Positions 10,581 through 41,174 of a stretch of DNA of 64,000 nt are shown in pieces (within the stretch, counting starts at the first letter, position 1; each line of letters opens with the position of its first letter). The stretch is from Phyllobates terribilis (Eukaryota). A program made the translations under genes and the position numbers. A model generated the notes under the pieces. That model was not told the origin of the DNA. It was given only the letters and a program-made list of their open reading frames with translations, and searched no databases. The stretch covers positions 139,376,001 to 139,440,000 of the forward strand of contig NW_027362770.1 in NCBI RefSeq assembly GCF_046119375.1. The letters are read 5' to 3'.

Positions 10581-12261
10581 AAATAGCTGGATTTCTAGCG
10601 CTGTAATATGGAAAAGCCCTGGCTGTATTCTGCAGTGCCAACAAGCAAATGGCGCAGAAAAACTGTGTTCTCTGAATTGCTTTTTAAGCAAATAATGAGG
10701 ATTAAGATCCAAAAAAAAGTATTCCTGGCCCCTGAGACCTGGGCCTTTGTATAGAAATATCTAACAGCAGCAGAAGACAGAATTGGAATGGAGCCTCTTG
10801 TGCTATATGCACTGCAGTCTGCTATATACACTGGCTGCCTGATATCTCTGCAGATGGATTAGTTAGTCCTCAAAAGGACTGTTTGTTAAGATGGATATGT
10901 GTAATGTACGGTTTTTCTCCCTACACTACCTACTACACAAGCAAATCTCTCCCTGACACAGCAGCAGTTCTCCCTACACTGTCTGATTCCAGAGTGAGTG
11001 TGACGAGCATGGCGGCGCCAGGTCTGATATAGACCTGATGACACTGTGCGGCCAGCCAATCACTGTAATGCCACAACCAACATGGCTACGGCATTACAGT
11101 GAGTGGCAGGCAATCCCTGCATGTTCATTGGCTCTCTAAAGAGTGCCAAACATGCAGGGAGGGGACACGAGCTCCCGCCGAGCAACCCCGGAAATACTTG
11201 GCGGGCGCCAAGCATCTCGAGCAGTGAGATGCTCGGGCAAGCACCGAGCAGTAGCGAGCATGCTCGCTCATCACTAATAATAACTCAGGACCCTTGTTCT
11301 CAGGGTCCCAGCAATGAGTAATTTTTTTTTATTGAGGATGATTACTTTAAAAGAAGCCTGTATGTTTCCTCATATGCTAGAAAAGAATTTCTTAAAGAAT
11401 TGCATTGCATAATTTTTCTGTCTTGGCATAAATATAAAATTTACCTGGTGTAAATGCTTTTGTTCTCCTGAATTCGGTGTTGTTTTTCTTTTGTACCTGC
11501 TCGTCTCCGTTCCTGAGATATCGCGTTTTCTTCTTTGTGTAAGGGGCACAGGGCGGTAGTCATGGGCAAGGGGCCGTTGTTCTCTCACACCCTGGCCCCT
11601 CACAAATAAAAGATAAAGTCCTGTCTGTTGTGTGGTTTGCGTGTAAAGAACAACATTCACTTTTGTTTGTTGAGACTCCATCTGTTTGATGGACCCGGGA
11701 CCAGGCTCGATCACATAGTTCACACCAGACTGTTGGCTTGTTTTCAACGGTTTAACTTGACTCCATAGGCTAGTTCAGAATCAATCACTGGTACAGCACA
11801 TTGTAACACAGCATGGACATACCTTGCTCTAATGGCACTTCCTACCCCAGGGATGTCTCGCCCGGCACCGCAGCTTCCCGGGAAACCTGCCCCGACTCAT
11901 CCCTGTGTGTAGCGCTGGCGTCCCTGCCCTCTGCTAGGCAGGGACGCTGCTCCCCTCACCGCTCTGCTGTCAGCGCGCGCTCCGTCCCGGCGTCCTCTCC
12001 TCGCTCTGCTGGCAGCGCGCGCTCCGTCCCGGCGTCCTCCTCCTGCTCTGCTCCGTGCCCGGCGTCCTCTCCCCGCTCTGCTCCGTGCCCGGCGTCCTCC
12101 TCCTGCTCTGCTCCGTGCCCGGCGTCCTCTCCCCGCTCTGCTGTCAGCGCGCGCTCCTTCCCGGCCCCTGTGCTTAGGGCGCGCGCGCGCTCCCCTCCTC
12201 TTAAAGGGGCCGCGCGCGCCGTCCTAAGGAGTCCCCGGCCAATGGCCGGAGGACTTCATCA

Positions 12262-12301
12262 TATATAAGGCACCTCCTCCAAAATGGAGGTGCCCGAGCA
12301 A
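12262..12301 (+). promoter_or_regulatory. S2 LTR TATA box, hairpin and predicted transcript 5' end used for self-priming
   Basis: TATATAA at 12262; GCACCTCC/GGAGGTGC inverted repeat; GCCCGAGCAA at 12292-12301 is complementary to PBS TTGCTCGGGC at 13122-13131. Confidence 0.75.
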
Positions 12302-13132
12302 TGTTGTTTGCACCTGTGTCTCACCTGTGCTTCAGCCCTCAGGTCCCGTTGCCAGTTACCTGCCAGTTACCTGCCTGATTCCTGCCTGAATACTTGTTAC
12401 CTGTCTGCCAGTCTGAGGTCCGACGGTCTGCCTTACTACTCCTGTCAGTCTGTCTAAGGACCAGCCTGCCCGCTCACCTGGGAGCGCATATCAGCTACCT
12501 GCCTGCTTGCCTGAGGTCCGACGGTCTGCCTTACTACTCCGGTCAGTCTGTCTATGGACCAGCTTGCCCGCTCACCTGGGAGCGCTTCTCCGTTACCTGC
12601 CTGCTTGCCAGCCCGGAGGCTCCGTTGTCACGTGCTGTGACCACCAGCTATCTCAGAGACTCTTGCCCGCTCACCTGGGAGCGCATCTCCGTTACCTGCC
12701 TGCTTGCCAGCCCGGAGGTCCCGTTGTCACTTGCGGTGACCACCAGCTATTCCAGAGACTCTTGCCCGCTCACCTGGGAGCGCTTCTCCGTTACCTGCCT
12801 GCCTGCCAGCCCGGAGGCTCCGCCGTCACGTGCCGTGACCACCTGCTATTCCAGAGACTCTCGCCTGCTCACCTGGGAGCACCCATCTACCATCTGCCTG
12901 CTAGCCTACCCGGAGGCTCTGCCATCACAGGTCGTACCTACCCCTTACCCAGAGACTGCCCTGATCACTTGCCGTATCTCCCTGTCCGTTCACCCAGAGA
13001 CTGCCCTGATCACTTGCCGTATCTCCCTGTCCGTTCATCCAGAGACTGCCACCCGCTCCCTTACAAGGGCCGCCCCCTTGTATAGTAGCTCAGAGGTTCC
13101 GCCTCCCGGACCCGTTACAGTTTGCTCGGGCC

Positions 13133-16100
13133 ATGGAACCCGGTGGCACCCAAGCTCCCTCGCTCTCGGACCTCTGTCTTGAACTGTCCCGTCTGAAGTC
13201 CCAACAGGAGGCCATCCTGGGTCATCTGCGGAATGTTAATACTCGCCTGAACACCCTGTCTGATCCTGCAACTACGGCCAGTACCATGGTATCCTTTTCC
13301 GGACCCCGGCTCTCTGCACCTCCTCGCTTCGGAGGCGACTCCGTCCTGGCTCGGGGCTTCATAAATCAGTGCACCCTGCATTTTGAACTATTGTCCCACC
13401 AGTTTAACTCCGACCGAGCCAAAATTGCATTCATCATGTCCCATCTCACCGGGGAGGCTCTGGCCTGGCTAAATCCTCTGTGGGAGAGAGGAGACCCCCT
13501 GGTGTCCGACTTGCCTGCCTTTCTCATGGCTTTCCGGAAAGCCTTCGACGAACCCGGACGGAGGACCTCATCCGCATCATCTCTGCTACGCCTCCGTCAG
13601 GGAAGCCTCACCGTGGGTCAATATGCCATACGGTTCCGCACCCTTGCCTCGGAGCTGGCCTGGGATAACGAAGCTCTGGTATCCGTCTTCTGGGAGGGTC
13701 TGTCCGGCCGTATTAAAGATGAACTTGCTGGTCGGGACATTCCTACCACTCTCGATGACCTAATAACTCTTGCCACCCGGATTGACCTACGGTTCCAGGA
13801 ACGTGCCAAAGAGGTCACCCGTGAAAAGGGGCTTCCACGTCTGGGTCCTACTTTTCTGAAACCCGTCACTCCTTCCGTTTCTCCCCAGGTACACTCTCCT
13901 GAGCCTATGCAGGTCGACCAGACCAAGATGGTCAAATCCCGTCAGGACTTTCGCCGTGCCGAGGGGAGCTGCTTCTACTGTGGCAGTAAGGAGCATCGGA
14001 TCCGTGCCTGCCCGGAGAGGTCGGGAGAACGCCTGTGTCTAGGTTCGCTCAGAGGACTTGATCTAGACAAAAATAAATCCTCTCCATCCCTGCTGCTGTC
14101 TGTCTCAATCATCTGCGGGGAGAATCGTTATTCCGAACTAGCCCAACTTGACTCTGGAGCAGCCGGAAATCTTATTTCACTGTCCCTGGTGGAGAAATAC
14201 CGCATCCCCACCAAACCTCTGGCTGTACCCTTGTCTGTTGTTGCCGTGGATGGGGGCCTCTTATCTCGCCCCATCCAATTCATCACCGAATCCATTACTC
14301 TGCAAGTGGGTATGCTGCATTCAGAGAGTATCTCCCTTCACGTTCTGCCTGGACTCTCTCACGCCCTCTTGCTAGGTCTGCCTTGGCTCCAGAGACATGC
14401 ACCCGTGCTTGACTGGCAAACCGGAGAAGTCCTTCGCTGGGGACAAGACTGTCATAAAACCTGTCTGGTTCCCGTCCATTCCGTCCGTCCCTCTCCTATC
14501 CCAGCTAATCTACCTGGACTTCCGATTCCTTATTGGTCTTGTGCTGATGTCTTTGATATGGAGGAGGCAGAGACATTACCACCTCGTAGACCATGTGACT
14601 GCCCCATCGATCCCGCCAGAGTAATGCAGGTGGCCCCCGTGAGTCTAAATTGTCTCCCTCCTGGTAAGACGTTCGTATCGGTACCTGATCGGGAGAGGAT
14701 CCTACACTGGGGTCATTCGTCTAAACTAGCTGGCCACGCCGGTCAGAAAAAGACCCTCCAGCTTATTACCCGGCACTACTGGTGGCCTAACCTGCACAAG
14801 GATGTTATGGACTTTGTTTCTGCCTGTGTGTCCTGCGCCCGCAACAAGGTTCCGAGACACCTGTCGGCCGGCCGCCTTCTTCCTCTGCCTGCACCTGCTG
14901 CCCCCTGGCAGCATATAGCGATGGACTTCGTAACTGATCTGCCCGTCTCTGCCGGTTGTACGGTCATTTGGGTGGTCGCTGACCGCTTTTCCAAGATGGC
15001 TCACTTCATTCCCCTGCCAGGTCTTCCGTCTGCACCCGAGCTGGCCAGAGTCTTTATCCGCCACATCTTCCGTCTTCATGGCCTGCCCCGTCACATCGTG
15101 TCGGATCGAGGAGTACAGTTCACTTCTCGTTTCTGGAGAGCCACTTGTAAATTGCTAGACGTCACTCTGGACTTCTCCTCCGCTTACCACCCACAGTCTA
15201 ATGGTCAAGTGGAGCGGATCAATCAGAACCTGACCAGTTACCTCCGGCACTTCGTTAATGCTCACCATTCTGACTGGGTGGATCTCCTGCCAAGGGCCGA
15301 ATTCTCGTACAACAATCACAAGAACGAGTCTTCCTCCATATGGGAGAGTACCCGGTCCGCACTCCTTCTGTCATCCGAGCGTATGAAAAGGCACGCTGAC
15401 AAAGGACGTCTGGATCCTCCTCAATTCCGTCCTGGGGATAAAGTCTGGCTCTCGTCCAAATATGTCCGGCTCAAGAACCCTTCCTATAAGTTGGGGCCTC
15501 GGTTCATCGGCCCACTGGAGGTTATCAGTCAGATCAACCCGGTGGCCTATAAATTGAAACTCCCGGCCAACTTACGGATCCCTAACTCCTTCCATGTATC
15601 TCTCCTCAAACCTGTGGTACTTAACTCTTTTTCTAAGTCTACAGGTACGCCTCTTGCTCCGGTTTCTGCTGAGGACGAGTTTGAGGTAGAGAACATTCTT
15701 GCCACCAAAAGGGTAAGAGGAAAGACCTTTTTCTTGGTAGATTGGAGGGGGTTTGGTCCTGAGGAGAGAACGTGGGAGCCCCGGGAGAATATCCATGCCC
15801 CTCTCATCCTAGCTAAATTTCTGTCTGGCCTAAAAAAGGGGGGGCCTAAAGGGGGGGGTACTGTAGCGCTGGCGTCCCTGCCCTCTGCTAGGCAGGGACG
15901 CTGCTCCCCTCACCGCTCTGCTGTCAGCGCGCGCTCCGTCCCGGCGTCCTCTCCTCGCTCTGCTGGCAGCGCGCGCTCCGTCCCGGCGTCCTCCTCCTGC
16001 TCTGCTCCGTGCCCGGCGTCCTCTCCCCGCTCTGCTCCGTGCCCGGCGTCCTCCTCCTGCTCTGCTCCGTGCCCGGCGTCCTCTCCCCGCTCTGCTGTCA

Positions 16101-16222
16101 GCGCGCGCTCCTTCCCGGCCCCTGTGCTTAGGGCGCGCGCGCGCTCCCCTCCTCTTAAAGGGGCCGCGCGCGCCGTCCTAAGGAGTCCCCGGCCAATGGC
16201 CGGAGGACTTCATCATATATAA
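13133..16222 (+). CDS. Gag-protease-integrase-chromodomain polyprotein lacking RT and RNase H (1029 aa; last about 120 aa from the 3' LTR)
   Basis: CCHC knuckle CFYCGSKEHRIRAC; protease LDSGA; IN HHCC (HSSKLAGH...CVSC); D (AMDF), D (SDRG), E (QVER); GPRFIGP; chromodomain EFEVENIL...FLVDWRGFGPEERTWEP. No YxDD; PPRRPCDCPID joins directly to pre-integrase sequence near 14612. Confidence 0.93.
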   Translation: MEPGGTQAPSLSDLCLELSRLKSQQEAILGHLRNVNTRLNTLSDPATTASTMVSFSGPRLSAPPRFGGDSVLARGFINQCTLHFELLSHQFNSDRAKIAFIMSHLTGEALAWLNPLWERGDPLVSDLPAFLMAFRKAFDEPGRRTSSASSLLRLRQGSLTVGQYAIRFRTLASELAWDNEALVSVFWEGLSGRIKDELAGRDIPTTLDDLITLATRIDLRFQERAKEVTREKGLPRLGPTFLKPVTPSVSPQVHSPEPMQVDQTKMVKSRQDFRRAEGSCFYCGSKEHRIRACPERSGERLCLGSLRGLDLDKNKSSPSLLLSVSIICGENRYSELAQLDSGAAGNLISLSLVEKYRIPTKPLAVPLSVVAVDGGLLSRPIQFITESITLQVGMLHSESISLHVLPGLSHALLLGLPWLQRHAPVLDWQTGEVLRWGQDCHKTCLVPVHSVRPSPIPANLPGLPIPYWSCADVFDMEEAETLPPRRPCDCPIDPARVMQVAPVSLNCLPPGKTFVSVPDRERILHWGHSSKLAGHAGQKKTLQLITRHYWWPNLHKDVMDFVSACVSCARNKVPRHLSAGRLLPLPAPAAPWQHIAMDFVTDLPVSAGCTVIWVVADRFSKMAHFIPLPGLPSAPELARVFIRHIFRLHGLPRHIVSDRGVQFTSRFWRATCKLLDVTLDFSSAYHPQSNGQVERINQNLTSYLRHFVNAHHSDWVDLLPRAEFSYNNHKNESSSIWESTRSALLLSSERMKRHADKGRLDPPQFRPGDKVWLSSKYVRLKNPSYKLGPRFIGPLEVISQINPVAYKLKLPANLRIPNSFHVSLLKPVVLNSFSKSTGTPLAPVSAEDEFEVENILATKRVRGKTFFLVDWRGFGPEERTWEPRENIHAPLILAKFLSGLKKGGPKGGGTVALASLPSARQGRCSPHRSAVSARSVPASSPRSAGSARSVPASSSCSAPCPASSPRSAPCPASSSCSAPCPASSPRSAVSARSFPAPVLRARARSPPLKGAARAVLRSPRPMAGGLHHI

Positions 16223-18342
16223 GGCACCTCCTCCAAAATGGAGGTGCCCGAGCAATGTTGTTTGCACCTGTGTCTCACCTGTGCTTCAGCCCTCAGGTCC
16301 CGTTGCCAGTTACCTGCCAGTTACCTGCCAGTTACCTGCCTGATTCCTGCCTGAATACTTGTTACCTGTCTGCCAGTCTGAGGTCCGACGGTCTGCCTTA
16401 CTACTCCTGTCAGTCTGTCTAAGGACCAGCCTGCCCGCTCACCTGGGAGCGCATATCAGCTACCTGCCTGCTTGCCTGAGGTCCGACGGTCTGCCTTACT
16501 ACTCCGGTCAGTCTGTCTATGGACCAGCTTGCCCGCTCACCTGGGAGCGCTTCTCCGTTACCTGCCTGCTTGCCAGCCCGGAGGCTCCGTTGTCACGTGC
16601 TGTGACCACCAGCTATCTCAGAGACTCTTGCCCGCTCACCTGGGAGCGCATCTCCGTTACCTGCCTGCTTGCCAGCCCGGAGGTCCCGTTGTCACTTGCG
16701 GTGACCACCAGCTATTCCAGAGACTCTTGCCCGCTCACCTGGGAGCGCTTCTCCGTTACCTGCCTGCCTGCCAGCCCGGAGGCTCCGCCGTCATGTGCCG
16801 TGACCACCTGCTATTCCAGAGACTCTCGCCTGCTCACCTGGGAGCACCCATCTACCATCTGCCTGCTAGCCTACCCGGAGGCTCTGCCATCACAGGTCGT
16901 ACCTACCCCTTACCCAGAGACTGCCCTGATCACTTGCCGTATCTCCCTGTCCGTTCACCCAGAGACTGCCCTGATCACTTGCCGTATCTCCCTGTCCGTT
17001 CATCCAGAGACTGCCACCCGCTCCCTTACAAGGGCCGCCCCCTTGTATAGTAGCTCAGAGGTTCCGCCTCCCGGACCCGTTACACTGTGGATCCCAGTCC
17101 GTTTTCCCCTCCGGAGATGAAAGCAAGATAGGCTCCTCCATACCCTGGTCCGGCTGTAGGCTGCAGACATTAATGGATGTCCCACTGACTTTTGTCCATG
17201 CCATTCTCATACTGCTTTCGGTTACTGCTACTTGTTTCTTCAGATTGTTCTGTTCCCTGAAGGATCCTTGGTTCCCTGACCCAATGCTGGCCCTTACTTT
17301 CTTTATGATTCCCCTCATTCTTCTCTCTCACCAGGAAATGCCCCCCCACCTATATAGTGTGGCATCCCCTCCCTAACTGGGAGTGCCCCTATAACTGTTA
17401 ACCCCTACCTCACTCTAACTTACTTCTTTCTGAACTAAAGTGCAATACTAAACACATCAATATCAATAAGGTATACTTGATTAATTCACAACATTAATAG
17501 TCATAATACCTTATAAAATATATCCACATTAAACAACAGAAGCATACCTATTCCATGAGGAAGGGATGAAGGGCATGAATTGCCCCGAGCACACCCTTAC
17601 ACCTGCATGAAAAGCTAGTTTTGTTAGCCAAGTGGGTGTGGTCCTCATAAAGGACACCCACAGAGAAGAGTTGAGGACCACACCCACTTGTAACAACACT
17701 TAATTTATATACAGGGAAGAGGAGGCCATATCTCGGGAAAGGAGAGGCGCAGAAACAAAACAAAAACATCGCCGGATTCAGGAGAACAGAGGCATTTACA
17801 CAAGATAATTAAATAATATAGTTAAGGCAAGTGACAGGTCTCATTTAAAATCCCATAATTTCACGATGTTTCTAGTGACAAATGTTAGAAATATTCTTTT
17901 CCTACATGGTATTGTTATTTATTTATTTTTTTAAATAATGTACATAAATAAAAAAATAAAATCAGTCCCACATAGAGAGGATTAATAAATATTTAATTTT
18001 TCACAAATGAGTGAGCGTAGAACAGAAAAGGTTAAGCAAACCCTGTCTAAAATCTATTATATTACACTAATTAAATGTGTTCCAGCAGCACATCAAGCAC
18101 GCGAGAAAGTGTGGGTGTGGGTTCAAAAGGGTTAAATTTAGTAAAATAAATGCATTCATAATGTTAAAGCTGCAGGGGGTCCAGCGGATGGAGAAACAAC
18201 ATAGGAAAACTAAAACTTGGAACAATAACAAACGAACAGGACATTTCTAATAATCTGGCATCTGCTATTACGGACAGGTTGTGGCTCTTTGGATTTTCTG
18301 TGTATTTGAAAAAAACATCAAAGAGCTGAAAACCTTTTATTA

Positions 18343-18484: not shown

Positions 18485-20559
18485 TTAACCCCTTTGCGAC
18501 CTATGACATATAGGTATGTAGCGCCCCTGAGGGTTCGGTCGCCACAGAGGTATTGCATCTCATCCAGAGGTGTGGTATCTCACTCTCAGGTAAGGAAGGA
18601 GTATGGCTCAGGACCCTAACACTACATCCACTACACCACATTTCCGGGGGACAGGGCGACAATGCTCCTACAGGAGAGCACAACTGTCCCTGATCCCTGG
18701 CTGGAGTGGGGAGGAACCACCTAGAGAGGGGGAACCAGGTAGCGGATGGGTGGAGGACATAGATCCTGGGAGCACTGGAGTAGGAGGTATAAAAGCAAGG
18801 AACCATTTTGGTTAGGGGTTGTTAGCTAGTGAGTAGTGGTGAGGAGAAGTGACAGGAGCAGAGGCTCTGTACGAGCTCTGCTCCACAGGCAGGCCTAGTT
18901 AAGAGGCTTGAGCCTGAAAGGAGAAGAGAGGAAAGGGGAGCAGAACGGCTCCAGGACAGGAACCGAAGGGACCCTAGGGGTACGGGCCGTGCAGCCGCCA
19001 CCCGTACGCCCGCCGCTGCCAGGAGGTAGGGGGGGGTCAGGCCAAGAAGGGGAACTGGATCCCTCAACCAGCAGAGACTACAGGGCTCAACTGGGAACCG
19101 GAGGCTGCAGCACTTTAAGTACAGCAGGCCGCCCACACCAGCCACCAGGAAGGTAGCCACATAGGGCCAGGGGACGGAACACACGTCACCCGCCAAGGCC
19201 CGAGGACACTGGACAGAGGTGCCGCTAGGTGTGAGGTACAAGGAGAGAGGCCAGAGAAAGCTACACAGAACGGGGTCCTGAAAAGTGCTCTGGAGCTACC
19301 TGAGGGTGGACTGAGCCCCTCACTGAGTACGTGTAGCACCCTGAGGATTCGGCTGCTACAGGAGTATTGCACCTCAACCCAGAGGTGTGATATTCCACTC
19401 CCGGGTAAGGAAGGAGTGTGGAACTGAGCTCAGATAGACTGCATGCACTACATACATCCCATTCCAGAGGAGCAGGCCGACGGCACTCCCACTTAGAAAT
19501 GTGCAGGTGCGACCGAGCCTGTTCCTGGCTGGAGTGGGAGGGGGGAGGAACATCCCATGTAGTGTAGGGGCAGATAGGGGGAGCAGTCTGGGTAGTGTTA
19601 GGAGCTCATTGGGTGCTGGTCACCTGAGCTCACACATAGAGGGTGTATATAAGGTGGGCACCATCAAAGATCAGGGTCAGACGCAGAGGACAAGTCAGAT
19701 GCAGAGAGTCAGAAGGAGAGAACAAGTCTTCTGCAGAGGAAGTCAGCCTGCAGCAAGGGAGCAGAGCAGACCTGAGCCTGAAGAGTGAGAGAGTGGAGTG
19801 CAGAAAGACCCAGAGGGGGACAAAGAAGGGACCCAAGAACCCAAATCAGATCACCGGGTGAGGAGTCAGCAGAAGGGTACCGGAACCCAAGCTGGTGGGG
19901 GCAAAGACATTCCCCAGCCAGAGACCGGAGACCGTGGGCAGTGTCTGTCACGGTCACCCACTACATTCACCCTGAAGGCACACCACATGGAGGGTCAGGG
20001 AACCTTAGGCCAAAGGTTGCCCAACAGAAGGCCCGAGGGAGCTGGATTTAGGTGAATCACTGGTGGGGACGGCTGAAGTAAGGACAGAGGGAGAGCTCAG
20101 GGCCACGCTCCGGACTTGTTTGGGGGTTGGCCGGATCCAGGACCTGGTGGACGCAGCACGGCTCGGGAGGTCACTTGGAGCTAGAGTGACCAGGAACATC
20201 TGCAGTAAGTAAAGACCCTTAACTGCACAACCCGAGTCTGTCATCATTACCGGCTGCACCGCACCACCACAACCCCCATCCTCTGCGCCTGTCCCCTCTG
20301 AGGCTATACCCCTCCCGTTGGGGGTTATCCCACCAAGCTGCGCACCTACCATCAGCCTCAGCGGACCCTGCAGCAGCGGCGGCCACAGTGACCGCATCAC
20401 AACGGGTGGCGTAGTCGACAAAACGAACTTTAATAACATCAGTAAAGACTGCCACATAACACTGAGCTTGACGCCCTGGGCACGGGACCGGGTCACAGCC
20501 GCTCGGAGACTACAACCCCCCATCTGATCCGGTGCCGGGTATTCCCCTCAAAAAGGAAT

Positions 20560-22695
20560 ATGTCCCAGGGGGCGCGTCAACTTTGGCGTAGTCGGCAGGA
20601 TTACGTGCCCGCAACACCCGGGTACTGCGTGCCTGAAGAAAAGTGCAAGTTTACCTCAGAAAGAAGTCTCCCGCCGGTTCCGGAGGGTCCACGCCATCGG
20701 ACTCCATCACCAGTCGTTTCCCGCCGATTGTCCGCCATTTCCAGCTTGTTCCCGCCATCTGCCGAGTTTCCCGCCACTGGGAAGCGATTCCCGCCAAAAC
20801 CGCAGATTTCCCGCCTTGGAAGAGCAGCGGACGCCATTATGGGCGTGCCAAAGGAGAGCAAGAGGCAACCTCCCATCGTGGGCCAGGACAGAAAATGGCG
20901 CCAAAAGTGGAAACCGCCCCCACCAACAGAGACTGTGATGCTGGAGGTGTCTGTCAGCGTGAAAGAACTCCCCCTGGAGCTGACAGTCACCGAGTTGCCC
21001 CGGGACCGCCCTCGAAGTGGGAGGAGACGAAAGAAAGGAGAGAAGATGGGTGTCGCCTGGAGCAGTGTAGAACGAGCGCACCCGGAGGCAAGAGGTCTAA
21101 TGAGGAGTAGCGGAGAAGCTCACCCGGAGTTGAGGAGAGAAAGAGTGGACCCGGGAATGGAGCGGCAGCAGAGCAGCACCGGCCCGCTGGCCAGGAGCCT
21201 GCTGGAGGAAGAAGGAGGAGAGCAGAGCAGCACCGGCCCGCTGGCCAGGAGCCTGCCGGAAGCAGAGCAGAGCAGCACCGACCCGATGGTCAGGAGCCTG
21301 CTGGAGTCAACAACCCCGCTAGGCTTAGCGGAGATCCTGGCGCAGCTTCCCCGAGATCGGGAGTGCGCGCGGAGTGCCCTGGAGGGCCTCGCGGGAAGGA
21401 TGGCCCGAGTGCAGAGGGAGATCCTGGCGGAGTGGGGCCGGGAGATGGCCCAGCAAGCTGGAACCTGTCCACCTAACCCGCTCCCTTGGAAGAAGACATC
21501 GACTGCCTCTGCGGATGACGCGGGAGGACCCAAGGCCGGAGACGGCGCAGAAGAGGGAGCGAGACGCATGGCAGCAGGTAAGGGGGATGCCTATACCCCA
21601 TACCGGAAGACCGCTTACCTGCCCCAGCTCCCCGTCGCAGAGCCCGAAGGTCCCCCGGCCGTACCCGAGACCGCCATGACACCGCCACCGACTAGGCCCC
21701 GACCGGAAGCCGCCGTCGCGACCCCGATGACGTCACGCATCGTGACCCGGAGCGTGGCGCCGGAAGAGGAGCCTCCGGCCTGGTCACAGGGCCTAGCATT
21801 TCCGGGCGCCGCATCCAAAGCAGAGCCATCTACCTCCGCGGAGCCTCCGGCCTGGTCGCAAGGCCAGGTAACCCAGGGCGCCGCCGTCCTAACGGTGCCC
21901 TTCACCTTCCAGGTGCCCCAGGCCTGGCCGCAAGGCCTGGGCAACCCGGGCGCCACCACCACCGCGCCCGCGCCCGTAATACCTAGGGTGCCACATCTGG
22001 GAGAGGACCCCTTCAGCCAGCTAACGTGGCCGGACGGTCGGCCTTTCATCTGGCCCGAAGGATTCTTGGAGCTGGAGCGGCAGAAGCAACTAGGTCCCCT
22101 GTGTGAGCCCCTAATCCCGGCTCCGAAGCCCGTGACTCGGGTCTCGCCTCCACTCGAGGAAGCCCAGTTCGTGTGGGACCCCACGGGAGAAGATTTGATG
22201 GGGTTCACCGGAGAGACTCGGGCAGCTGCAGCAGCGCGCACAGAGTGTTGCCGTCAACAGCTGGCAGAGTTCAAGAGAGAGCGGGAGGAGAGGCAGGCCA
22301 AAGAGCAATGGGCCCAGACCCGCAGCGCGGAGCAAAAGAGTCGGACCAGAAGGGACCCCCGTGCAGCAGATCGTCCCCGTACCATCGGGACGGTAATAAA
22401 GTTTAATGCGCAGCATGGGTGGGGCTTCATAAGGGACCGGAACACCATGGGTGACGTCTTCGTTACACGACGGGACGTCGAGTCCCACCTGCCAGAGGGT
22501 CACAAAGGCCGTGACCTCTACGTCGGTGACGAGGTAACGTTCACCCGGCACAAGTGTGCCAAGGGACCTTACGCCCTCCACGTGCATCGCTTGACGGAGG
22601 AGGAGTTGCGGTGCGAGGAGGAGGAGCAAGAGGACCCGGACGGGTCTGAAGAAACCACCAGCCGTAAGATAAGAGCAGGAGGCAGACGCCGTTGA
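20560..22695 (+). CDS. Uncharacterised protein: low-complexity N-terminus, coiled coil and C-terminal cold-shock domain (711 aa from the LTR ATG; 618 aa from the Kozak ATG at 20839)
   Basis: 22381-22593 encodes TIGTVIKFNAQHGWGFIRDRNTMGDVFVTRRDVE...LYVGDEVTFTRHKCAKGPYALHVHRL, which fits the CSD pattern (G-x-V-K-x-F, RNP1 xGxGFI, RNP2 DVFV, GD-x-V-x-F, KGP-x-A-x-x-V). The ORF is uninterrupted. Confidence 0.88.
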   Translation: MSQGARQLWRSRQDYVPATPGYCVPEEKCKFTSERSLPPVPEGPRHRTPSPVVSRRLSAISSLFPPSAEFPATGKRFPPKPQISRLGRAADAIMGVPKESKRQPPIVGQDRKWRQKWKPPPPTETVMLEVSVSVKELPLELTVTELPRDRPRSGRRRKKGEKMGVAWSSVERAHPEARGLMRSSGEAHPELRRERVDPGMERQQSSTGPLARSLLEEEGGEQSSTGPLARSLPEAEQSSTDPMVRSLLESTTPLGLAEILAQLPRDRECARSALEGLAGRMARVQREILAEWGREMAQQAGTCPPNPLPWKKTSTASADDAGGPKAGDGAEEGARRMAAGKGDAYTPYRKTAYLPQLPVAEPEGPPAVPETAMTPPPTRPRPEAAVATPMTSRIVTRSVAPEEEPPAWSQGLAFPGAASKAEPSTSAEPPAWSQGQVTQGAAVLTVPFTFQVPQAWPQGLGNPGATTTAPAPVIPRVPHLGEDPFSQLTWPDGRPFIWPEGFLELERQKQLGPLCEPLIPAPKPVTRVSPPLEEAQFVWDPTGEDLMGFTGETRAAAAARTECCRQQLAEFKREREERQAKEQWAQTRSAEQKSRTRRDPRAADRPRTIGTVIKFNAQHGWGFIRDRNTMGDVFVTRRDVESHLPEGHKGRDLYVGDEVTFTRHKCAKGPYALHVHRLTEEELRCEEEEQEDPDGSEETTSRKIRAGGRRR
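20584..20602 (+). promoter_or_regulatory. Primer-binding site for tRNA-Ser (AGA/TGA type)
   Basis: TGGCGTAGTCGGCAGGATT is the reverse complement of the vertebrate tRNA-Ser 3' end AATCCTGCCGACTACG-CCA (from memory); 4 nt after the LTR. Confidence 0.88.
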
Positions 22696-25600
22696 GTGCG
22701 GCAGAGCAGGAGACTGTATATAGTTGCCTGTCGGGGCACAGTGAATCGAAACTGAAACTGGAACTGTTGTTGCTGCTAAAATAGTCCCCGTTGGGACCAG
22801 CGAACTGTTACCTGTAACCCTTTCCATACCAGGCTGAGGACTGTGAGCAGCCATCCCTTTCCCTTTACCTGGCCGGGGACTGAGAACGGCCAAAGTTTCC
22901 CTGTACATAGTTGCGCTTGCTAAAGCGCCCCCTACCGGTTTTATTTGGGAAACTGTTTTACAAAAGACTGTCGCACTCTACCTGGTCACGAGTTGCACGG
23001 TGACCAGAGGAACAGAAGAGAGAAAGAGACGACGAGAATGTTGTTTACCTGAAAAAGTTTATATATATATTTATATAGTATTTCGTATAATATTTAATAT
23101 GTTTTACATGTTTATAAAAATGTTGTATGTTTTGGTGTTTTTTGTCTTTGCAGCCCGAGGACGTGCTGTGATTTACCAGGGGGGAATGTAGCACCCTGAG
23201 GATTCGGCTGCTACAGGAGTATTGCACCTCAACCCAGAGGTGTGATATTCCACTCCCGGGTAAGGAAGGAGTGTGGAACTGAGCTCAGATAGACTGCATG
23301 CACTACATACATCCCATTCCAGAGGAGCAGGCCGACGGCACTCCCACTTAGAAATGTGCAGGTGCGACCGAGCCTGTTCCTGGCTGGAGTGGGAGGGGGG
23401 AGGAACATCCCATGTAGTGTAGGGGCAGATAGGGGGAGCAGTCTGGGTAGTGTTAGGAGCTCATTGGGTGCTGGTCACCTGAGCTCACACATAGAGGGTG
23501 TATATAAGGTGGGCACCATCAAAGATCAGGGTCAGACGCAGAGGACAAGTCAGATGCAGAGAGTCAGAAGGAGAGAACAAGTCTTCTGCAGAGGAAGTCA
23601 GCCTGCAGCAAGGGAGCAGAGCAGACCTGAGCCTGAAGAGTGAGAGAGTGGAGTGCAGAAAGACCCAGAGGGGGACAAAGAAGGGACCCAAGAACCCAAA
23701 TCAGATCACCGGGTGAGGAGTCAGCAGAAGGGTACCGGAACCCAAGCTGGTGGGGGCAAAGACATTCCCCAGCCAGAGACCGGAGACCGTGGGCAGTGTC
23801 TGTCACGGTCACCCACTACATTCACCCTGAAGGCACACCACATGGAGGGTCAGGGAACCTTAGGCCAAAGGTTGCCCAACAGAAGGCCCGAGGGAGCTGG
23901 ATTTAGGTGAATCACTGGTGGGGACGGCTGAAGTAAGGACAGAGGGAGAGCTCAGGGCCACGCTCCGGACTTGTTTGGGGGTTGGCCGGATCCAGGACCT
24001 GGTGGACGCAGCACGGCTCGGGAGGTCACTTGGAGCTAGAGTGACCAGGAACATCTGCAGTAAGTAAAGACCCTTAACTGCACAACCCGAGTCTGTCATC
24101 ATTACCGGCTGCACCGCACCACCACAACCCCCATCCTCTGCGCCTGTCCCCTCTGAGGCTATACCCCTCCCGTTGGGGGTTATCCCACCAAGCTGCGCAC
24201 CTACCATCAGCCTCAGCGGACCCTGCAGCAGCGGCGGCCACAGTGACCGCATCACAACGGGTGGCGTAGTCGACAAAACGAACTTTAATAACATCAGTAA
24301 AGACTGCCACATAACACTGAGCTTGACGCCCTGGGCACGGGACCGGGTCACAGCCGCTCGGAGACTACAACCCCCCATCTGATCCGGTGCCGGGTATTCC
24401 CCTCAAAAAGGAATATGTCCCAGGGGGCGCGTCATACGCACAGCACGACGAGGGAAGTTATGATCTGCAGTGTAACTTGGAAACTGATAACCGTGAGTAA
24501 AGACCCTGGGACTGCATCACCTTGTCTCCGTGTTTCTTACCGCGCCAACACTCACTGTACTGGGACGCCCCGCACAACCACCATCATTCACCTGCGCTGC
24601 CCTGAAGCTACACTCTTCCTGTGGGGAGTTATACTACACTTGCTGCACATACCACCAGCTTCAGTGGACTGCTCCGCAGCGGCGGTTCTCCATAACCGCA
24701 ATCCACAGGTGGCGTAGTCGGACTATATAACCTATACACATAGACTGCCACTGGTTTGACCGCCCTGGGTCACGGACCTGGTCGCCGCCACGGTGACTAC
24801 TACCCCCAGCATCTACAAGGCCCCGCTCCAGGTGCCCCCCCACGGCCCAGGGGGCGCGTCAGGTACGTCATAGGTCGGTTGCTTCCCCCTGTTTGGTGCG
24901 GGCTCTGGCGATGAGCCTGCATCTTTTCCGGCACATGATCTGATCAACTGTCATGAGCCCCTAACAGCCGCGGATGGAATCACGATCCACCCGTCACTGT
25001 TAGCATGTTAAATGCCGCTGTCAATCTCTGACAGTGGTATTTAACATAGATAAATGTAACCTTCAGCACTCATAAAAGTACAAAAGTTGATGCATGAAGT
25101 GAAAATTTTATTCACAGCCGACACAAAAGTAAACAGATCAAATCCAACGTTTTGGCATATTATTGCCTTTATCAATGTTATCTGTGTCAATATAAGACAT
25201 AACAAAAGATATAATGACAAAATTTTAAAAGACAGATCAAAATAACAAAACAAAAAATCTATATATATAATCGTCTTATCCTGTCTGTCTGTCTGTCTGT
25301 CTGTCCAGGAAATCCCGCGTCGCTCATTGGTCCGGCCGCGGCCAATCAGCGACGCGGGATTTGAGAAAAAGATGGCGGCCGTTAGCGGCTCATCTGCAGG
25401 ACGGAGGTCAGCGGCGATACAACAGGGAGATGACCGGCGCGAGGCGCTCATCTCCCGGCCGCTAGCAGCAGAAGGACCCTGACCGGAGGCGCCACTGACC
25501 TCCATGCGGCTAGGGTGTCAAGGGAGGACCGGGGAGTTGCGTTGCCGGTCGGGATACTTCTGCTGCAAGCAGCCGCTCATCTCCCAGCTTCTCGCAGCGG

Positions 25601-34105: not shown

Positions 34106-35688
34106 GTACTGTTTAAAGACTGCGGTCAGTCACTCCTGCACATCCTCCCTATACGGATGCACCTTTCATATCTTTGTGCAGACCCCCTCAACTCCAGGTA
34201 TGTAAACACCTTCTTGGCTACTCACATTACTGTTGCTGCTTTCTTCTCTTGGTGCTGTCTTGGTTGTTCTTGGTCTTGCATTGGTTCCTCTTCCATACAT
34301 ACATATATATACCATCTCTGGTTTATATCAACCTATGTTAGAGTTTCAGATGAATCCCGTTACTACCTATATGGGTATCCCAGCCTTATATTCATTATGA
34401 CACTTTCTCCTTTTGCTACAGTCTTATCTTTTGTACTTACTCTATGGCTGTTCTAGATTATACATATATTCACACCCGCAAATGTTTCTATTTTTCCATT
34501 TGACTAATAGATATATTTTATGACTACCTATGAAAGTCTGTATATGCATATACGTTTATATGTATATGTATATGTGGCGCCCTGCTGTGCATTGGTGCCA
34601 CAGATCCTAGAGGGGTGCATGGATGGATTCCTCCACAAGAGGCCCCCATAGCATACACACACCTCCACCTTCCTCCTCAGATCACCAGAGGGTGCCCGGA
34701 TAGGGATATAAAAAGGGAAGGTGGAGCTAGGCAGTTCAGTCTAGTCTGTGAGGAGGTCAGTCTGCTGCAGCCAGAGAAGTTGCCAGTCCAGCCTAGACTC
34801 AGGGAGCTCAGGTTATTGAGCCAACAGCGTGCCGACGCCATAAGAGCGGTGAAGAGTAGCGAGGCCTACTGCCAGTGTGAAGCCTAGTTAGGGCCCCGAG
34901 CACGGCCGAAGGCAAGTGGAGTAAGCGAGCTGCATAGGGGGCGGAGGAGCTTAGCCAGCTCACCCCAAGACCATATACCGGACACCGGGTCCGTGCCTGC
35001 TGGGATCTCTACGACCAGCAGAAACTACCGGAACCCCTGGCGAACTACATGTCCCAGGAACACCACAAGCTGACCATTATACCAGGGTCAGGAATCACTG
35101 AGGCCCAAGAGACCAGGGAGTGTGATCTCCAACAGAAGGCCCTACCACCAGGTCAGCAGGTGCAAGACAGAGACTAAGTTAGGCCTAGCTCCAGGCGGGT
35201 CACAAACTTATCAGGAAAAGGCAAGAAACAGGAGGCCCCACACCCCCTCACTGGGGAGAGTCCTGAAATGCACCCTTCACCCTACAGTGCCCTGGATCGT
35301 GCCTGAAACACCACTAGTAAAGGTACTGAAGTGAACTGTCGTGTGTGTGCCTATTCTTCTTCTGACCCGGGTGGGTCCCCTCTGTCCTGCATCCCTTCTC
35401 CTACACTGCCCTGAGGCCCCGCTCCACCTGTGGGGAGCCGCAACAACTAAGCTGCCTGATCACCGGCCTCAGAGGGCTGTAGCAGCGCTGGTGATCCTCA
35501 CCAGATACCACGGGTGGCGTCACCAACTTTTACTATCCCATACACCTTTCCCCCATTATCCATTCCTTGCTTTTTAAGAGTGACCCCAGGGTACGGCCCC
35601 AGGATCCGGCCACAGCGGCATCCCCCAAAACCAACAACAAGGCCCGGGCGCCTAGTCGTCCCCATTCCCTGGGCGCGTCATCTCTTCC

Positions 35689-35707
35689 TGGTGTCACAAA
35701 CAGGATT
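35689..35707 (+). promoter_or_regulatory. Primer-binding site, tRNA-Ser(CGA) type
   Basis: TGGTGTCACAAACAGGATT vs the complement of vertebrate tRNA-Ser(CGA), TGGCGTCACGAACAGGATT (17/19; tRNA sequence from memory). Confidence 0.65.
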
Positions 35708-36068
35708 CCGTGCCCGCTGCAACGATGGAGTGTTCTGCCCGTTGCCACCGGGTACTGTGCGCCTTTAATCAAAAGCTGTGTATTTAACTGTGGCAAAGAT
35801 TGCCGCCATTGTTGTGCCGCCGAGCGGGAAGAAGGGCGTAACTGCGGGAAACTGAGAGGCGTACCTGCTGAAGCGCGCAAAGCCCCAGACACGCCCCACG
35901 CCTCGACGTCAAACCAGGAAGCGCCAGGTCCTGGAAGGAGCGCCGGTGAGTGCTCTGACGTAGGACGCAAGCGACGCAAGGTCCTGAAGAAGACCGTCAC
36001 CTGCAGAGCTGCGGCCTACCGGAAGACAAGAAAAGAAGGTAGGCCACGGTTCGCTAGGGGGCGCCAGA

Positions 36069-37127
36069 ATGTGCGAGGAACAGCACAACGCCGGAGTACT
36101 GGTTAACCGCTCTGATAATCAACCCGCACTCGGTGCCGAGCAGGCCGAAGCAGCCGCTTCACCAGCAGGGCCTGTAACCCCTGTCATACCCATGGCCCTA
36201 CCGTACATCCCTGGAGTGAAGTGGCTCCCCCAGTACAGCGGCAAACCAGATACCATGTCTGGATTTAAATGGAAAATATGCGGTATACTGGACATGTACT
36301 CTATGACAGGCAAGCAAAGAGCCACTGTTGTATTGAGACAAATGACTGGTGCTGCGGAGCGGGAAGTAGAAACTTGGTCGGCCGCAGACCAGGAGTCAGT
36401 GTCCGCCATCTTTAAAAAGTTACAGACTGTCTTTGAGAATCGTACTGAGACAAAATTTCCGGATGAGGTTCTACAACTGCTCTCAGCAAGCGGAGGACAG
36501 TGTTCGGGACTATGCCTGGCGTTTACAAGGGGCCCTGGAGCTCTGAAACAGGTTAGTCCAACCAGCATCAATGATGAAAATAAAATGCTGAAGGAACAGT
36601 TTATCCGGGGACTGAGGTCCCAAGAGGAGAGCAGGACTGTGCGTTGGTGGTCCCTGGATCATCCAGATACCACCTTTGACACCCTTAAGGACATGGCTAT
36701 AAAAGGACTGCAGCCCCAGGAAACAACTGCTATCCAATGTTACCAGGGTGGGGCCACCCCAGTGCCTGTTGCGTCCACCTTTTCCCCGGTGGCTGCTGAA
36801 GCCAAGGTTCCAGCAACGTCCCCTAGTGAGCTGGACAGCCTGCGCTCTGAAGTGCGTCAGCTGAGCAAAACCCTAACCACTGTACTGAGTGCCCTGCAGC
36901 TGCGGACGGAGCCCGAGGAGGAAAGAAGGATCCTGCTAGCCGACAGCCCTGAGGATGTCCCCTGGATGAGAAGGAGGAGGACAACGCCACCCCCTGGGAG
37001 GACCAGCGACCAACGCCGCCCGCCGAGGGACCCTGTCTGCCACCACTGCCACAAGACAGGTCACGCCATCCAGAGCTGTCCTTTAAACGAGAAAACCCTG
37101 GGGCCGAGGGCCGACACCCAGGAGTAG
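36069..37127 (+). pseudogene. Gag of element E (probably frameshifted internally)
   Basis: LPQYSG capsid-like start; LKEQFIRGL; CCHC knuckle CHHCHKTGHAIQSC. Confidence 0.8.
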
Positions 37128-40100
37128 ACCCCCCAGGCCCATCAAACTGGTACCGCAGGTTCGTGGGAGGAAGACCTTACCTGTCCATTGTACTGTACGG
37201 CATCGCAACACCCGCTCTGCTGGACACAGAATCTCAGGTAACCATCATGTCTGATGTCCTCTACAAAAGGTTCTGGTCCATAGACAAACTTCACCCACCA
37301 GATCCAAATCTTTCCGTCTATGCCTCAAACGGCCTTCCCCTTAACCTAGTCGGGGTTAAGGATGTGGCAGTAAAGGTGGGAAGAGTGGAACTGAAGGACC
37401 AGGAACTAATTGTAGTAGAGACTAATCCTGATGATACCAGCTTGTATATGGTACTTGGCACTAATGTTGTTAGTAACTGTTTGGGAGAAGTGTTGTTCTT
37501 GCTCCAACAGATAGCTGACACTGCCAGACCAGGGCAGAGAAGAGCGCTGCAGAAAGAGATCCGAGCCCTTATGTACCAGCAACACGTAAAGCTAACCGGC
37601 GGTGAAATTGATAATGTACGGGTGACAGACCCGGTACCCATTGTGATTCCCTCGATGAGTAAAATGCTGATTTGGTGTAGAGCAGCAATAGGTCTCAAAG
37701 GACGGAGCTACCAGGCGGTAGTAGAGCCCCTTAGCTCGGAACATAGGCCTACACTCTTGACTGCTAGAGGGGTAGTGGATGTACGCAATGGGAGGGTGCC
37801 CGTACGCCTCCTAAACTATGGGGAAGACGAGGTTAGATTACCACGCTACGCCACTGTTGCCAAACTGTACACAGTAAATAACAACTCCATACAAACGGCG
37901 GAGTCCTTAACCTCACCAGACGAAGTGGAGGATAATGACCCGGCCACCCAGGTGGAGGATTGGTGTCAACAGCTCCATGTTGGGACAGACACCAATCCTG
38001 CCCATCAGAAGCAGGGTGTACACCAGGTGGTTCAGGAATATGAGCAGGTATTCAGTAAGCACCCACTTGACTTTGGGAGGATTAAGGGGGTTCAACACCA
38101 TATCCCCACAGGTGACCATCCACCCATCAAAGAACGTTACAGGCCTATACCACCAGCACACTACCAGAAGGCAAAGGAGATGTTGCACGACATGAAGAAG
38201 GCAGGGGTAGTAAGGGATAGTTGTAGTCCCTGGGCAGCTCCCCTAGTTCTAGTCAGGAAAAAGGATGGAAGCATGAGAATGTGTGTAGATTACAGACAAG
38301 TAATTCGCATTACACATAAAGATGCATACCGTTTACCACGTATAGAGGAATCCCTGGCTGCCTTAAAGTCTGCAAATTACTTCTCCACCCTTGACCTCAC
38401 TAGTGGGTACTGGCAAGTAGCCGATGGGACTCTGCGAGTTCAATAGTATGCCGTTTGGACTCTGCAACGCCCCCGGAACGTTCCAGAGATTGATGGAGTG
38501 CTGCCTGGGACACCGCAACTTCGAGACTGTACTACTATACCTGAATAACGTGATAGTGTACTCCAAAACGTATGATGACCACTTGAAGCACCTGGCGGAG
38601 GTATTTGAGTCACTGTCCCGGTATGGGATGAAGCTGAAGCCCTCAAAGTGCCACCTGCTCAAGAGAAAGGTACAGTACCTGGGGCACATCGTTAGTCCAG
38701 AGGGAGTAGCACCAGACCCGGAGAAGGTCACTGCCATCCAGAAATGGCCGGAGCCGAAGAGCCTCAAGGAGGTACGTCAGTTCCTGGTACTAGTCGGGTA
38801 TTACCGGAGGTTTGTGAAGGACTATACCAAGAAAGCGGCACCTCTGCAAGACCTCCTGGTAGGACAGTCCCCCAGAGGCAGAAATCCCCCATTCCAGTGG
38901 GGTAAGGAGCAGGCTGAATCCTTTAATGTGATGAAGGAGATCCTGACCGGCGAAGAGATCCTAGCCTACCCTGACTACAGCCAACCGTTCCTGCTGTACA
39001 CTGATGCCAGCAATGAAGGATTAGGAGCTGTACTGAGTCAGAAGCAGAATGGCAAAGAGAAGGTGATCACCTATGCTAGCAGGAAGCTCCACCCGACCGA
39101 GAGGAACCCAGAGAACTATAGCAGCTTCAAGCTGGAGTTCCTAGCCCTGGTCTGGGCCATCACCGAGCGGTTCAAGCACTATCTAGCCTCCAGTAAATTC
39201 ACTGCCTTCACTGATAACAACTCCTTGACTCATCTGGAGACAGCTAAGCTAGGAGCCATGGAACAACGATGGATGGCTAGGCTGTCAAACTACCAATTCA
39301 CTATTAAGTACCGGGCGGGCCGCAAGAACGCCAACGCCGATGCCCTGTCCAGGATGTCAGACACTGAAGAAGAAGTGGATGACCTGGAGGAGATTGAACT
39401 ACCTGCCTTTCATCAGAATGGGATAGTCCACGAGCAACGAGCCTCCAGGAGGCAACGTGGTAAGACGTTAAACCCCCTGCCTCACCACAGCTGGAAGGAG
39501 ACCCAGGACAGCGAACCGGTTGTCAGCCGTATCAAAGAACTGATAACCCAGGAAGGTTCCTCCCTGGAGAAGGAAGCGTCTCTCCAAGCCAAGCAGCTGT
39601 AGAATGAGAAGAGCCGGTTGTTCATCTATAGAGAGAAACTGTGCCGGAGGTACGTCAACACCAAAACCCAAGAGATGGTATGGCAGATAGTGGTGCCCAA
39701 AACAGACATCCAGATGGTGTTGGAAGCCTACCACGATCAGGCGGGGCACTTTGGCTGGAAGAAGCTAGAAACCCTGCTGAAGTGTCGGTTTTATTGGGTA
39801 GGAATGCGCAGTTCCATTGAGAGGTGGTGCCGGAATTGTGGACCCTGTAGCCTCAGAAGAAAAGACTACAGCAGCCAGAAGGCACCCCTGCAACCCATCA
39901 AGACAACTCGACCTTTGGAGATCGTGGCCCTGGACCATGTCAAGCTGTCACCCAGCAGGTCAGGATATTCCTATGCCCTGACCATGGTGGATCACTACTC
40001 CCGGTTCCTGGTGATCGCCCCCGTCAAGGACCTGATGGCATAAACTGCGGCGAAGACGTTTCAGGCGTACTTCTGCAGGCCCCATGGATACCCGGAGCAG

Positions 40101-41174
40101 GTGCTGACGGATCAAGGCTCAGCCTTTGAAGCCGAATTGTTCAAGGAGTTCTGCCATCTGTACGGGTGTAAAAAGATCCGGACCACACCGTACCACCCCC
40201 AAACCAACGGTCTCTGTGAAAAGATGAATAACATCGTCATCAACCTGCTGAAGACCTTACCACTAGAGGAGAGAAATCAGTGGCCAGACCTACTACCTGA
40301 CCTGGTAGATCTGTACAACCACATACCTGTGAGTTCCACCAATTGTACTCCAGCATATCTCATGCGAGCCAGACCCGGGAAGTTGCCCATGGACCTGGAG
40401 CTTGGTGTAGTAGAACCAGAAGCAGATATGTCCACTGAGGACTGGGACACGACCAGACAGGAGCAGTACAGAAGAGTACAGGCCTGTGTCGAAGACAGTC
40501 TCACTCGGGTGAGGGACAAGCCGGAAGCCCACTACAATAAAAGTGCGCCCGCAGAACCCTTCACACCAGGAGAAGTGGTGTTAAAGAGGAAGAGGAGAAA
40601 TCACAAACTTGATGACCAGTGGGAGAGAGAACCCTACACTGTGTTAAACTCAAGATTTGATAACAAGAAGACCTGTTTGATTAGCAAAGACGGAGGAATA
40701 ACGACTGCAACGGTATCTAGAGACCATGTGAAGTTGTGTCCAGACCTGCTAAAGCCCCAAGAAGAAGTGCCTCTCACCGTACCGGAGGAGCCTAAAGAAG
40801 CAGTACTCCATACTGACTTAGGAGATTTCCCGGCAGATTGGCCTCAACTAGGAGGAGCAGTAATAATCCCTGTGATCCACTTCTTTCAACAGCCAGAAGA
40901 CCCTCCACAGCAAGAAGAGCCTGTAAGTGCTTCAGAAGAGCCTGTTCAAGAAGAATCCCCGGAAGAAGGATCCCCGGTTGGAGCAGAGCAAGAAGGCCCA
41001 GCCAATGGTACACTTGCCAGTCCAATAGAGAGGTTAAGGCAGTTTTACAACCTACCCACACGTAAAACTGACAGGGTAGCAGACAGTGCAGACACAGATA
41101 CCATCCACACTGCCGTACTACGCAGATCGACACGTAGCACACGAGGTCAGACCCCTGTCAGATACAGAGAATAA
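37082..41174 (+). pseudogene. Pol of element E (protease, RT, RNase H, integrase), broken by a deletion/frameshift and stops
   Basis: LLDTES (DTG-like); SPWAAPLVLVRKKDG...VDYR; FSTLDLTSGYWQV; YLNNV (YxDD lost); RH YTDAS...NYSSFKLEFLAL; IN H...H...CRNC, ALDHV, TDQG, LCEKMN. Confidence 0.93.

Follow-up and report, generated by a model that had tools for sequence, protein, structure and literature searches.

A dendrobatoid long terminal repeat retrotransposon family whose only gene encodes a cold-shock-domain protein

RESULTS

Structure of the element

A stretch of 64,000 nucleotides from the poison frog Phyllobates terribilis (NCBI RefSeq assembly GCF_046119375.1, contig NW_027362770.1, positions 139,376,001 to 139,440,000 of the forward strand; the whole stretch is referred to as the window) contains at positions 19332 to 24434 a long terminal repeat (LTR) retroelement whose single open reading frame (ORF) encodes a protein with a cold-shock domain (CSD). 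The element is best read as one copy of a satellite-like family of non-autonomous LTR retrotransposons that occurs in dendrobatoid frogs.

The element is 5103 bp long, while its relatives measure 4.6 to 5.1 kb. Its LTRs (19332-20579 and 23187-24434) are 1248 bp each, have TGT...TCA termini and show no differences, and the element is flanked on both sides by the 4-bp target-site duplication (TSD) TACG. The primer-binding site (PBS) TGGCGTAGTCGGCAGGATT starts 4 nt past the 5' LTR, and the polypurine tract (PPT) AGGGGGGAA directly precedes the 3' LTR. The frame from 20446 to 22695 is open for 749 codons from stop to stop and gives 618 amino acids (aa) counted from the ATG at 20839; the ORF listing held no other long ORF within the element. 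The host site is a related solo LTR (18517-24861, TSD GGTA). A first-pass annotation of the sequence had described a complete, apparently brand-new element. The structure was borne out, and the copy is indeed young, but the family is old and huge. An Rfam search gave nothing near the gathering score. Four sequencing runs of guessed or unknown type covered all 30 bins, a result that does not show transcription. The features are as follows; the ratios of nonsynonymous to synonymous substitution (dN/dS) are from the comparison with a sister subfamily described below.

19328-19331, left TSD TACG
19332-20579 (+), 5' LTR, 1248 bp, TGT...TCA; a putative TATA box (TATATAA) at 19646 and a putative poly(A) signal (AGTAAA) at 20208 were inferred
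20407-20417 (+), also 24262-24272, 11-nt second primer-site-like motif in U5, matching the type of the element's own PBS
20584-20602 (+), PBS, complementary to the 3' end of presumed tRNA-Ser including CCA
20603-20838 (+), leader with tandem TTCCCGCC and CGCCAT motifs, its 5' part homologous to the leader of a gag-pol family, family C
20839-22695 (+), single ORF, 618 aa from the ATG common to the subfamilies, mostly predicted disordered
21283-21462 (+), conserved N-terminal helical segment (aa 149-208 of 618), dN/dS 0.17
21991-22215 (+), conserved Trp/Pro-rich segment with the end WDPTGEDLMGF, dN/dS 0.12
22210-22353 (+), charged long helix (coiled coil or single alpha-helix), dN/dS 0.15
22381-22593 (+), CSD (PF00313), dN/dS roughly 0.05
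22594-22692 (+), short tail, acidic then basic
23178-23186 (+), PPT, the same as in family C
23187-24434 (+), 3' LTR, identical to the 5' LTR
24435-24438, right TSD TACG

The tandem TTCCCGCC and CGCCAT/AAAATGGCG motifs lie between 20668 and 20900 and are common with family C. We take the former to be E2F-like and the latter to be YY1-like, and they may act in the promoter or as repeats for RNA packaging. In the LTR the putative poly(A) signal shares bases with a splice-donor-like GTAAGT (20205-20213), and an acceptor-like TTTGCAG (23147-23153) is located just 5' of the PPT, both here and in the element at about 54 kb in the window.

The ORF product and its cold-shock domain

The first-pass annotation had placed a CSD at 22381-22593 behind a charged coiled coil and had seen no gag, protease (PR), reverse transcriptase (RT) or integrase (IN) in the element, and both statements held. 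A Pfam scan of the ORF detected PF00313 (35.8 bits, E 7e-9) and one coiled-coil match at chance level, and no gag, PR, RT, RNase H (RH) or IN domain; PF00313 scores were 35.8 and 40.1 bits against a curated cut-off of 27. AlphaFold2 predicted a long helix followed by a five-stranded barrel, an OB fold, for the last 146 residues (mean pLDDT 78). The best Foldseek matches of this model were the CSDs of CspA and YBX1 with an E value of about 1e-6 and a root mean square deviation of about 2 Å, and a sequence search of solved structures returned bacterial Csp and YBX1/2. The full-length model was disordered save for helices at aa 149-208, the long helix at 458-505 and the CSD. The C-terminal tail comprises 33 aa only.

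The stacking residues of the YBX1 CSD are W65, F74, F85 and H87 (PMC7498358). Alignment with YBX1 showed a remodelled RNA-binding face: the equivalents of F74 and F85 are kept, while Y72 is replaced by W, W65 by K and H87 by T, in agreement with the non-canonical RNP motifs noted earlier from the sequence. Invariant basic residues stand in place of the RNP2 histidine region, and R-R-D after RNP2 was invariant in all eight aligned copies. As the equivalents of W65 and H87 are replaced, binding of RNA by the element CSD is likely but not assured. The GHxGR stretch, which had been called an insert, is one relative to bacterial Csp only; against YBX1 it falls in the alignment on the long loop and is longer by one residue.

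For the length of the protein a range of 618 to 711 aa had been given. The start for 618 aa is common to the subfamilies, but the sister subfamily lacks the start for 711 aa (ATG 20560), which was rejected. Because this ATG is not conserved and codons 46-131 gave a dN/dS of 0.80, the true protein is likely 618 aa or shorter.

A Gag origin of the ORF was also rejected. The N-terminal helix resembles the C-terminal helix of Gag by eye, but comparison of the whole-alignment profiles of the ORF and the Gag of the candidate helper gave a probability of 0.1% (the Gag alignment contained one junk row of one residue), and comparison of sub-regions with a clean Gag alignment gave 0.05 to 0.2%, with a score of 8.2 against a shuffle median of 8.05. 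By these profiles the ORF is not detectably Gag-derived. Complex prediction with aa 145-600 of the ORF product and family C Gag gave a score of 0.00, obtained with alignments not used and with an uncertain fold of the partner.

Abundance and distribution of the family

The genome (10.57 Gb) contained 27,903 exact matches to a degenerate pattern of 10 codons from the CSD core and 42,177 occurrences of the junction of LTR end and PBS, and the control of each search gave 0. A first-look search found 41,330 candidates; all 150 that were scored were 99 to 100% identical over 159 aa. The 20 best matches were fetched, and two full LTRs were called in 17 of them, a sample biased to the youngest copies. 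The LTR pairs were identical in 15 of these 17 copies, and the LTRs differed by 2 to 6% between copies. Fourteen copies had perfect 4-bp TSDs and one a 5-bp TSD; one was in a tandem array and one had a mismatch. In the sister subfamily 4-bp TSDs were present in 16 of 18 copies, and 13 of the 18 were open from the ATG into the CSD in the test made by script, one copy having a shortened CSD. The core matches, the many subfamilies and the independent TSDs confirm a multi-copy family and not a capture at a single locus.

Two further members lie in the window. The sequence from 62165 to 64000, which continues into locus L086, is a copy of the sister subfamily about 80% identical to the main element and 4784 bp long, with an open ORF, LTRs that are 99.8% identical and the TSD ATAA. 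An older CSD element of another subfamily occupies 54135-58728; its LTRs are 94% identical, its TSD is AATG and its ORF is broken. The CSD of this element is 52% identical to that of the main element, and it has pieces of U5 and 3' untranslated region (UTR) in common with a gag-pol element at 34573-42858.

Annotated relatives were found in P. terribilis (one 99% identical), Ranitomeya variabilis, R. imitator and Anomaloglossus baeobatrachus, so the family spans both poison-frog lineages. Single-CSD relatives were obtained in profile searches only from dendrobatoid annotations, and the other top matches were multi-CSD proteins, e.g., from a dinoflagellate. As transposon ORFs are usually masked before annotation, this result does not show that other frogs lack the family. 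In three public gene models (P0002, P0005 and P0007) CSD fragments of the element are fused to genes of the host or of other transposons (R3H, PF13843 and PF02854 proteins); these fusions are probably annotation artefacts.

Selection on the ORF

Compared with the sister subfamily the CSD had a dN/dS of 0.05 (proportions of synonymous and nonsynonymous differences, pS and pN, 0.69 and 0.08), which is only a rough value because synonymous divergence is near saturation. Low ratios were also found for the long helix (0.15), the Trp-rich block (0.12), the N-terminal helix (0.17) and the tail (0.16). Much higher ratios were obtained for the Pro-rich linker (0.58), for aa 132-200 (0.71) and upstream of ATG 20839 in the leader and U5 (0.80 to 0.89). 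Across 12 copies pN was lower than pS in all 16 CSD pairs, with Fisher p values from 7e-5 to 1e-18 for pairs that are not independent. A dN/dS of the CSD calculated from 20 copies was set aside, as these copies had been selected for identity in that region.

Shared and private variants were compared in 17 sister copies picked by their leader DNA. For the whole ORF pN/pS was 0.30 among variants present in at least two copies and 0.66 among private variants; for the CSD alone the values were 0.13 and 0.37. Every shared indel was a multiple of three, and four frameshifts and two large deletions were all private. The ORF, and the CSD above all, is conserved by selection on replicating lineages, which is the pattern of a gene that transposing lineages need.

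Candidate helper elements

The first 30 junctions of LTR end and PBS on contig C1 were followed downstream. Seventeen led into this ORF, 11 into gag and two into other sequence. By-hand comparison placed the CSD core pattern 1.6 to 1.9 kb downstream of 14 of the 17 ORF-type junctions and near none of the 11 gag-type junctions. Ten gag-type copies, designated family C, were obtained in full. Most were about 7.9 kb long and carried gag and pol with 4-bp TSDs, their LTR pairs were 98.3 to 99.8% identical where cleanly found, and four of the ten had an uninterrupted pol frame. Pfam identified a PNMA-like Gag with a CCHC knuckle and the pol order PR-RT-RH-IN.

Family C has the same PBS and PPT as the element, common LTR ends and 72 to 77% identity in U5 and the 5' part of the leader, and it shares the TTCCCGCC and CGCCAT leader repeats. 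No CSD match was obtained in the autonomous elements examined, which were the element at 34573-42858, two copies of family A and all ten copies of family C. Two chimeras with a helper 5' end joined to the 3' end of a CSD element (L147 with family C, L074 with family A) are as expected from co-packaged RNAs and are consistent with template switching in shared particles, or they may have arisen by recombination at the DNA level. In donor-helper work with mini-Ty1, LTR elements moved with proteins given in trans (PMC4974528). Family C is the likely helper, and it seems to be only through the cis sequences in common with it that the element is tied to Ty3/Gypsy.

The gag-pol element at 34573-42858 is a decayed Ty3/Gypsy element of family A with LTRs that are 96% identical, a second serine-type PBS and the same terminal motifs. 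As a helper it was rejected, since its LTRs do not match the element; it has sequence in common with the older CSD subfamily instead. A different LTR element with 99% identical LTRs is located at 11908-17084. Its 1070-aa frame, read by eye, comprises gag, protease, integrase and a chromodomain-like end, and RT and RNase H seem to be lacking.

Primer-binding site and a second site in U5

The PBS is taken to be of the tRNA-Ser type. The same identity came from element copies in which the PBS continues into a T-loop, a long variable arm and, in L205, a UGA anticodon loop. A host tRNA gene for the primer was not recovered, and the three loci retrieved (L205, L206 and L207) turned out to be copies of the element with a lengthened PBS. 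There the PBS is followed by 15 to 35 further tRNA bases comprising T-arm and variable arm and, in one, the anticodon loop; these extensions record that reverse transcriptase has read on into the primer. Further CSD-element subfamilies carry the second serine-type PBS.

A second tRNA-complementary site was present in U5, 145 to 177 nt before the LTR end, in gag-pol and CSD elements alike. The U5 motif, counted at loci L056-L085 and L106-L135, tracked the PBS. With one serine PBS type 23 of 30 loci had the matching motif, none the other type and seven no motif, and with the other PBS type the numbers were 29, none and one of 30. This agreement may reflect shared ancestry of U5 and PBS within lineages, and the site could be a second primer-annealing site or a tRNA-fragment decoy.

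Origin of the cold-shock domain

On known CSDs the family profile scored 30.0 to 28.7 bits for YBX1/YBX2, 28.2 for CspA, 15.3 for CARHSP1 and 14.2 for LIN28B, so that YBX was ahead of CspA by only about 2 bits; host CSDE1 copies scored near zero. The loop length of the CSD matches YBX. In a CSD tree the element sequences of four species formed one open group (90/95) with long-branch warnings. This tree had no intact YBX row; from the profile scores and the loop a Y-box origin is likely. The ESM Atlas yielded no clusters other than generic CSD ones, under 0.9.

At G000:C4:791.48-791.52 Mb (L195, L196 and L197) there is a tandem of three CSD ORFs, which are diverged and have a near-canonical RNP2 (VHYS). 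Their CSDs are up to about 40% identical to that of the element, and no flanking LTR was seen; they may be an old relic, a copy that was domesticated or a gene resembling the donor. A multi-CSD gene, which we take from its sequence to resemble CSDE1, is present in intronless copies at G000:C1:734.44 Mb (L156-L161), with intron-split matches on C2.

DISCUSSION

We interpret the element as a member of a helper-dependent family with a functional CSD protein, at a probability of about 0.9. Several observations weigh against this interpretation or parts of it. The synonymous sites of the CSD are near saturation, which leaves the lowest dN/dS a rough figure. Derivatives with the CSD deleted have multiplied: one junction was found at 29 places on several chromosomes and a second at 30 places, mostly on small contigs. 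This spread may be due to transposition or to segmental duplication, and it makes a strict requirement in cis unlikely. Two of the four YBX1 stacking residues are replaced in the element CSD. Finally, the similarity to family C is limited to 72 to 77% in U5 and leader, and the 3' UTRs have almost nothing in common beyond the PPT, so that the true helper may instead be an element related to family C.

Selection on a freely shared protein is hard to maintain because broken copies gain just as much. That so few frame-breaking changes have been propagated therefore suggests that the protein works mostly in cis, acting mainly on its own RNA and favouring the packaging or survival of that RNA; this speaks against an anti-silencing factor that diffuses freely. 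The RNA of the element would be reverse-transcribed and integrated by helper particles. The protein, made from the full-length element RNA, would bind the same RNA through its CSD, and its conserved helical and Trp-rich segments would stabilise this RNA and route it to the sites of helper assembly. Element RNA would thereby outcompete helper RNA and gene-less derivatives for packaging, the protein being an advantage and not strictly required. To a specific cis-acting mechanism of packaging or routing of this kind we would give slightly less than even odds.

The first-pass annotation had suggested that the CSD may replace the nucleocapsid knuckle. This is not supported, since the ORF has no detectable Gag homology and helper Gag keeps its own CCHC knuckle. 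The same two observations, together with the basic region that helper Gag also possesses, make it rather improbable that the protein is a nucleocapsid-like chaperone within the particle, with the CSD melting the long, structured U5 and leader of its own element and so helping the tRNA to anneal or strands to be transferred. RNA chaperone activity of the Csp type is established, and the invariant basic residues at the RNP2 histidine region and the second tRNA-complementary site in U5 would suit such a role, but that site also occurs in helpers that lack a CSD, and entry into the particle would go unexplained. It is somewhat easier to imagine, though still unlikely, that the protein coats element RNA in oocytes and early embryos, as the host Y-box protein FRGY2 coats maternal mRNA, and shields it from decay or small-RNA silencing up to the time when helper proteins are present, with no need to contact Gag. 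YBX1 and YBX2 are the best matches of the family profile, and the protein consists of a CSD plus a long disordered region. Y-box proteins, however, end in a long tail in which basic and acidic blocks alternate, in place of the short tail found here, the equivalents of W65 and H87 are changed, and a diffusible protector would let ORF-less copies spread, whereas the frame breaks in the 17 sister copies were private.

The same argument bears on a role at the DNA level, in which the protein would bind single-stranded DNA or the element promoter and raise transcription or protect cDNA. The CSD of YB-1 binds single-stranded DNA (PMC7498358), and basic stretches in the N-terminal part of the ORF product are possible nuclear signals, but a transcription factor, working in trans, could not be expected to purge broken copies unaided, and we regard this role as highly improbable. 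Hardly more probable is selection at the level of the host, or no selection on the protein at all, with the ORF being a captured or domesticated gene or its frame kept open only against nonsense-mediated decay. The three tandem CSD ORFs on C4, with a more canonical RNP2 and no LTR seen, and the existence of gene-less derivatives speak for it; but amino acids are kept against near-saturated synonymous sites between transposing subfamilies, and thousands of dispersed copies carry the ORF, by which the passenger reading appears largely refuted.

The usual view of non-autonomous LTR elements is that they retain their cis signals and, beyond these, no more than Gag. The mammalian MaLR and VL30 elements are non-autonomous LTR elements that reach high copy numbers and are mobilised by an autonomous family related to them, and MaLRs keep one ORF as does the present family, but that ORF is Gag-derived and the helper retroviral. 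YBX1/YBX2 are the best-scoring solved relatives of the family profile; the element CSD has the same long loop and keeps the equivalents of F74 and F85, but identity is only about 32%, and in the element the equivalents of W65 and H87 are changed, the CSD is C-terminal behind a long helix, and the alternating-block tail is missing. Among LTR-bounded vertebrate elements PF00313 also occurs in bird endogenous retroviruses (ERVs), of which 46 carry a CSD, with repeated capture and a suggested adaptive value (PMC12287698, He et al. 2025). Those elements were identified as retroviruses by their RT and carry the CSD in addition, in varying positions, whereas here the CSD protein is the sole gene of an element that lacks RT and thus the bird-ERV gene set and whose candidate helpers have a Ty3/Gypsy layout. 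The frog family has about 28,000 copies under purifying selection, while the passages on bird ERVs cited here report no selection test. The plant TR-GAG elements are likewise non-autonomous and apparently active with one ORF, but in them it is Gag and they are under 4 kb (PMC4350172, Chaparro et al. 2015), against 4.6 to 5.1 kb and no Gag homology in the family described here. Xenopus 1a11 and Xretpos are frog LTR elements with a single long ORF, no pol and expression in embryos; 1a11, compared by description only, encodes a Gag-like 71-kDa protein and is low-copy (20 to 30 ORF copies), and the cited passages do not mention a CSD (PMC4585706). No report of a CSD-encoding non-autonomous LTR family was found in the literature searched, a search that was incomplete and excludes Repbase and Dfam; to this extent the earlier suggestion that the family is undescribed agrees with our results.

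Long-term purifying selection on an RNA-binding protein other than Gag implies that there is a step, be it RNA survival, routing or competition for packaging, which the parasite controls, and it would give a handle on how dependent elements outcompete their helpers. Taken with the bird ERVs, the family suggests that CSDs have been recruited repeatedly by retroelements. Recent Ty3 activity has been linked to genome size in frogs (PMC12822217), and the repeat content of poison-frog genomes is largely unclassified (62.6% of reads; PMC12208295); the family puts a name to a sizeable part of it. Fragments of the element are already fused into host gene models, among them an R3H and coiled-coil protein. 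Tentatively, and with less confidence than for the routing mechanism itself, the family may represent a class of vertebrate satellite retroelements, i.e., a parasite of Ty3/Gypsy elements with a host-derived, re-specialised RNA-binding adaptor that wins it packaging in helper particles; the family would predate the split of Aromobatidae and Dendrobatidae, outnumber its helpers and have enlarged a giant genome by no less than about 1%, or some 130 Mb should most matches be full-length.

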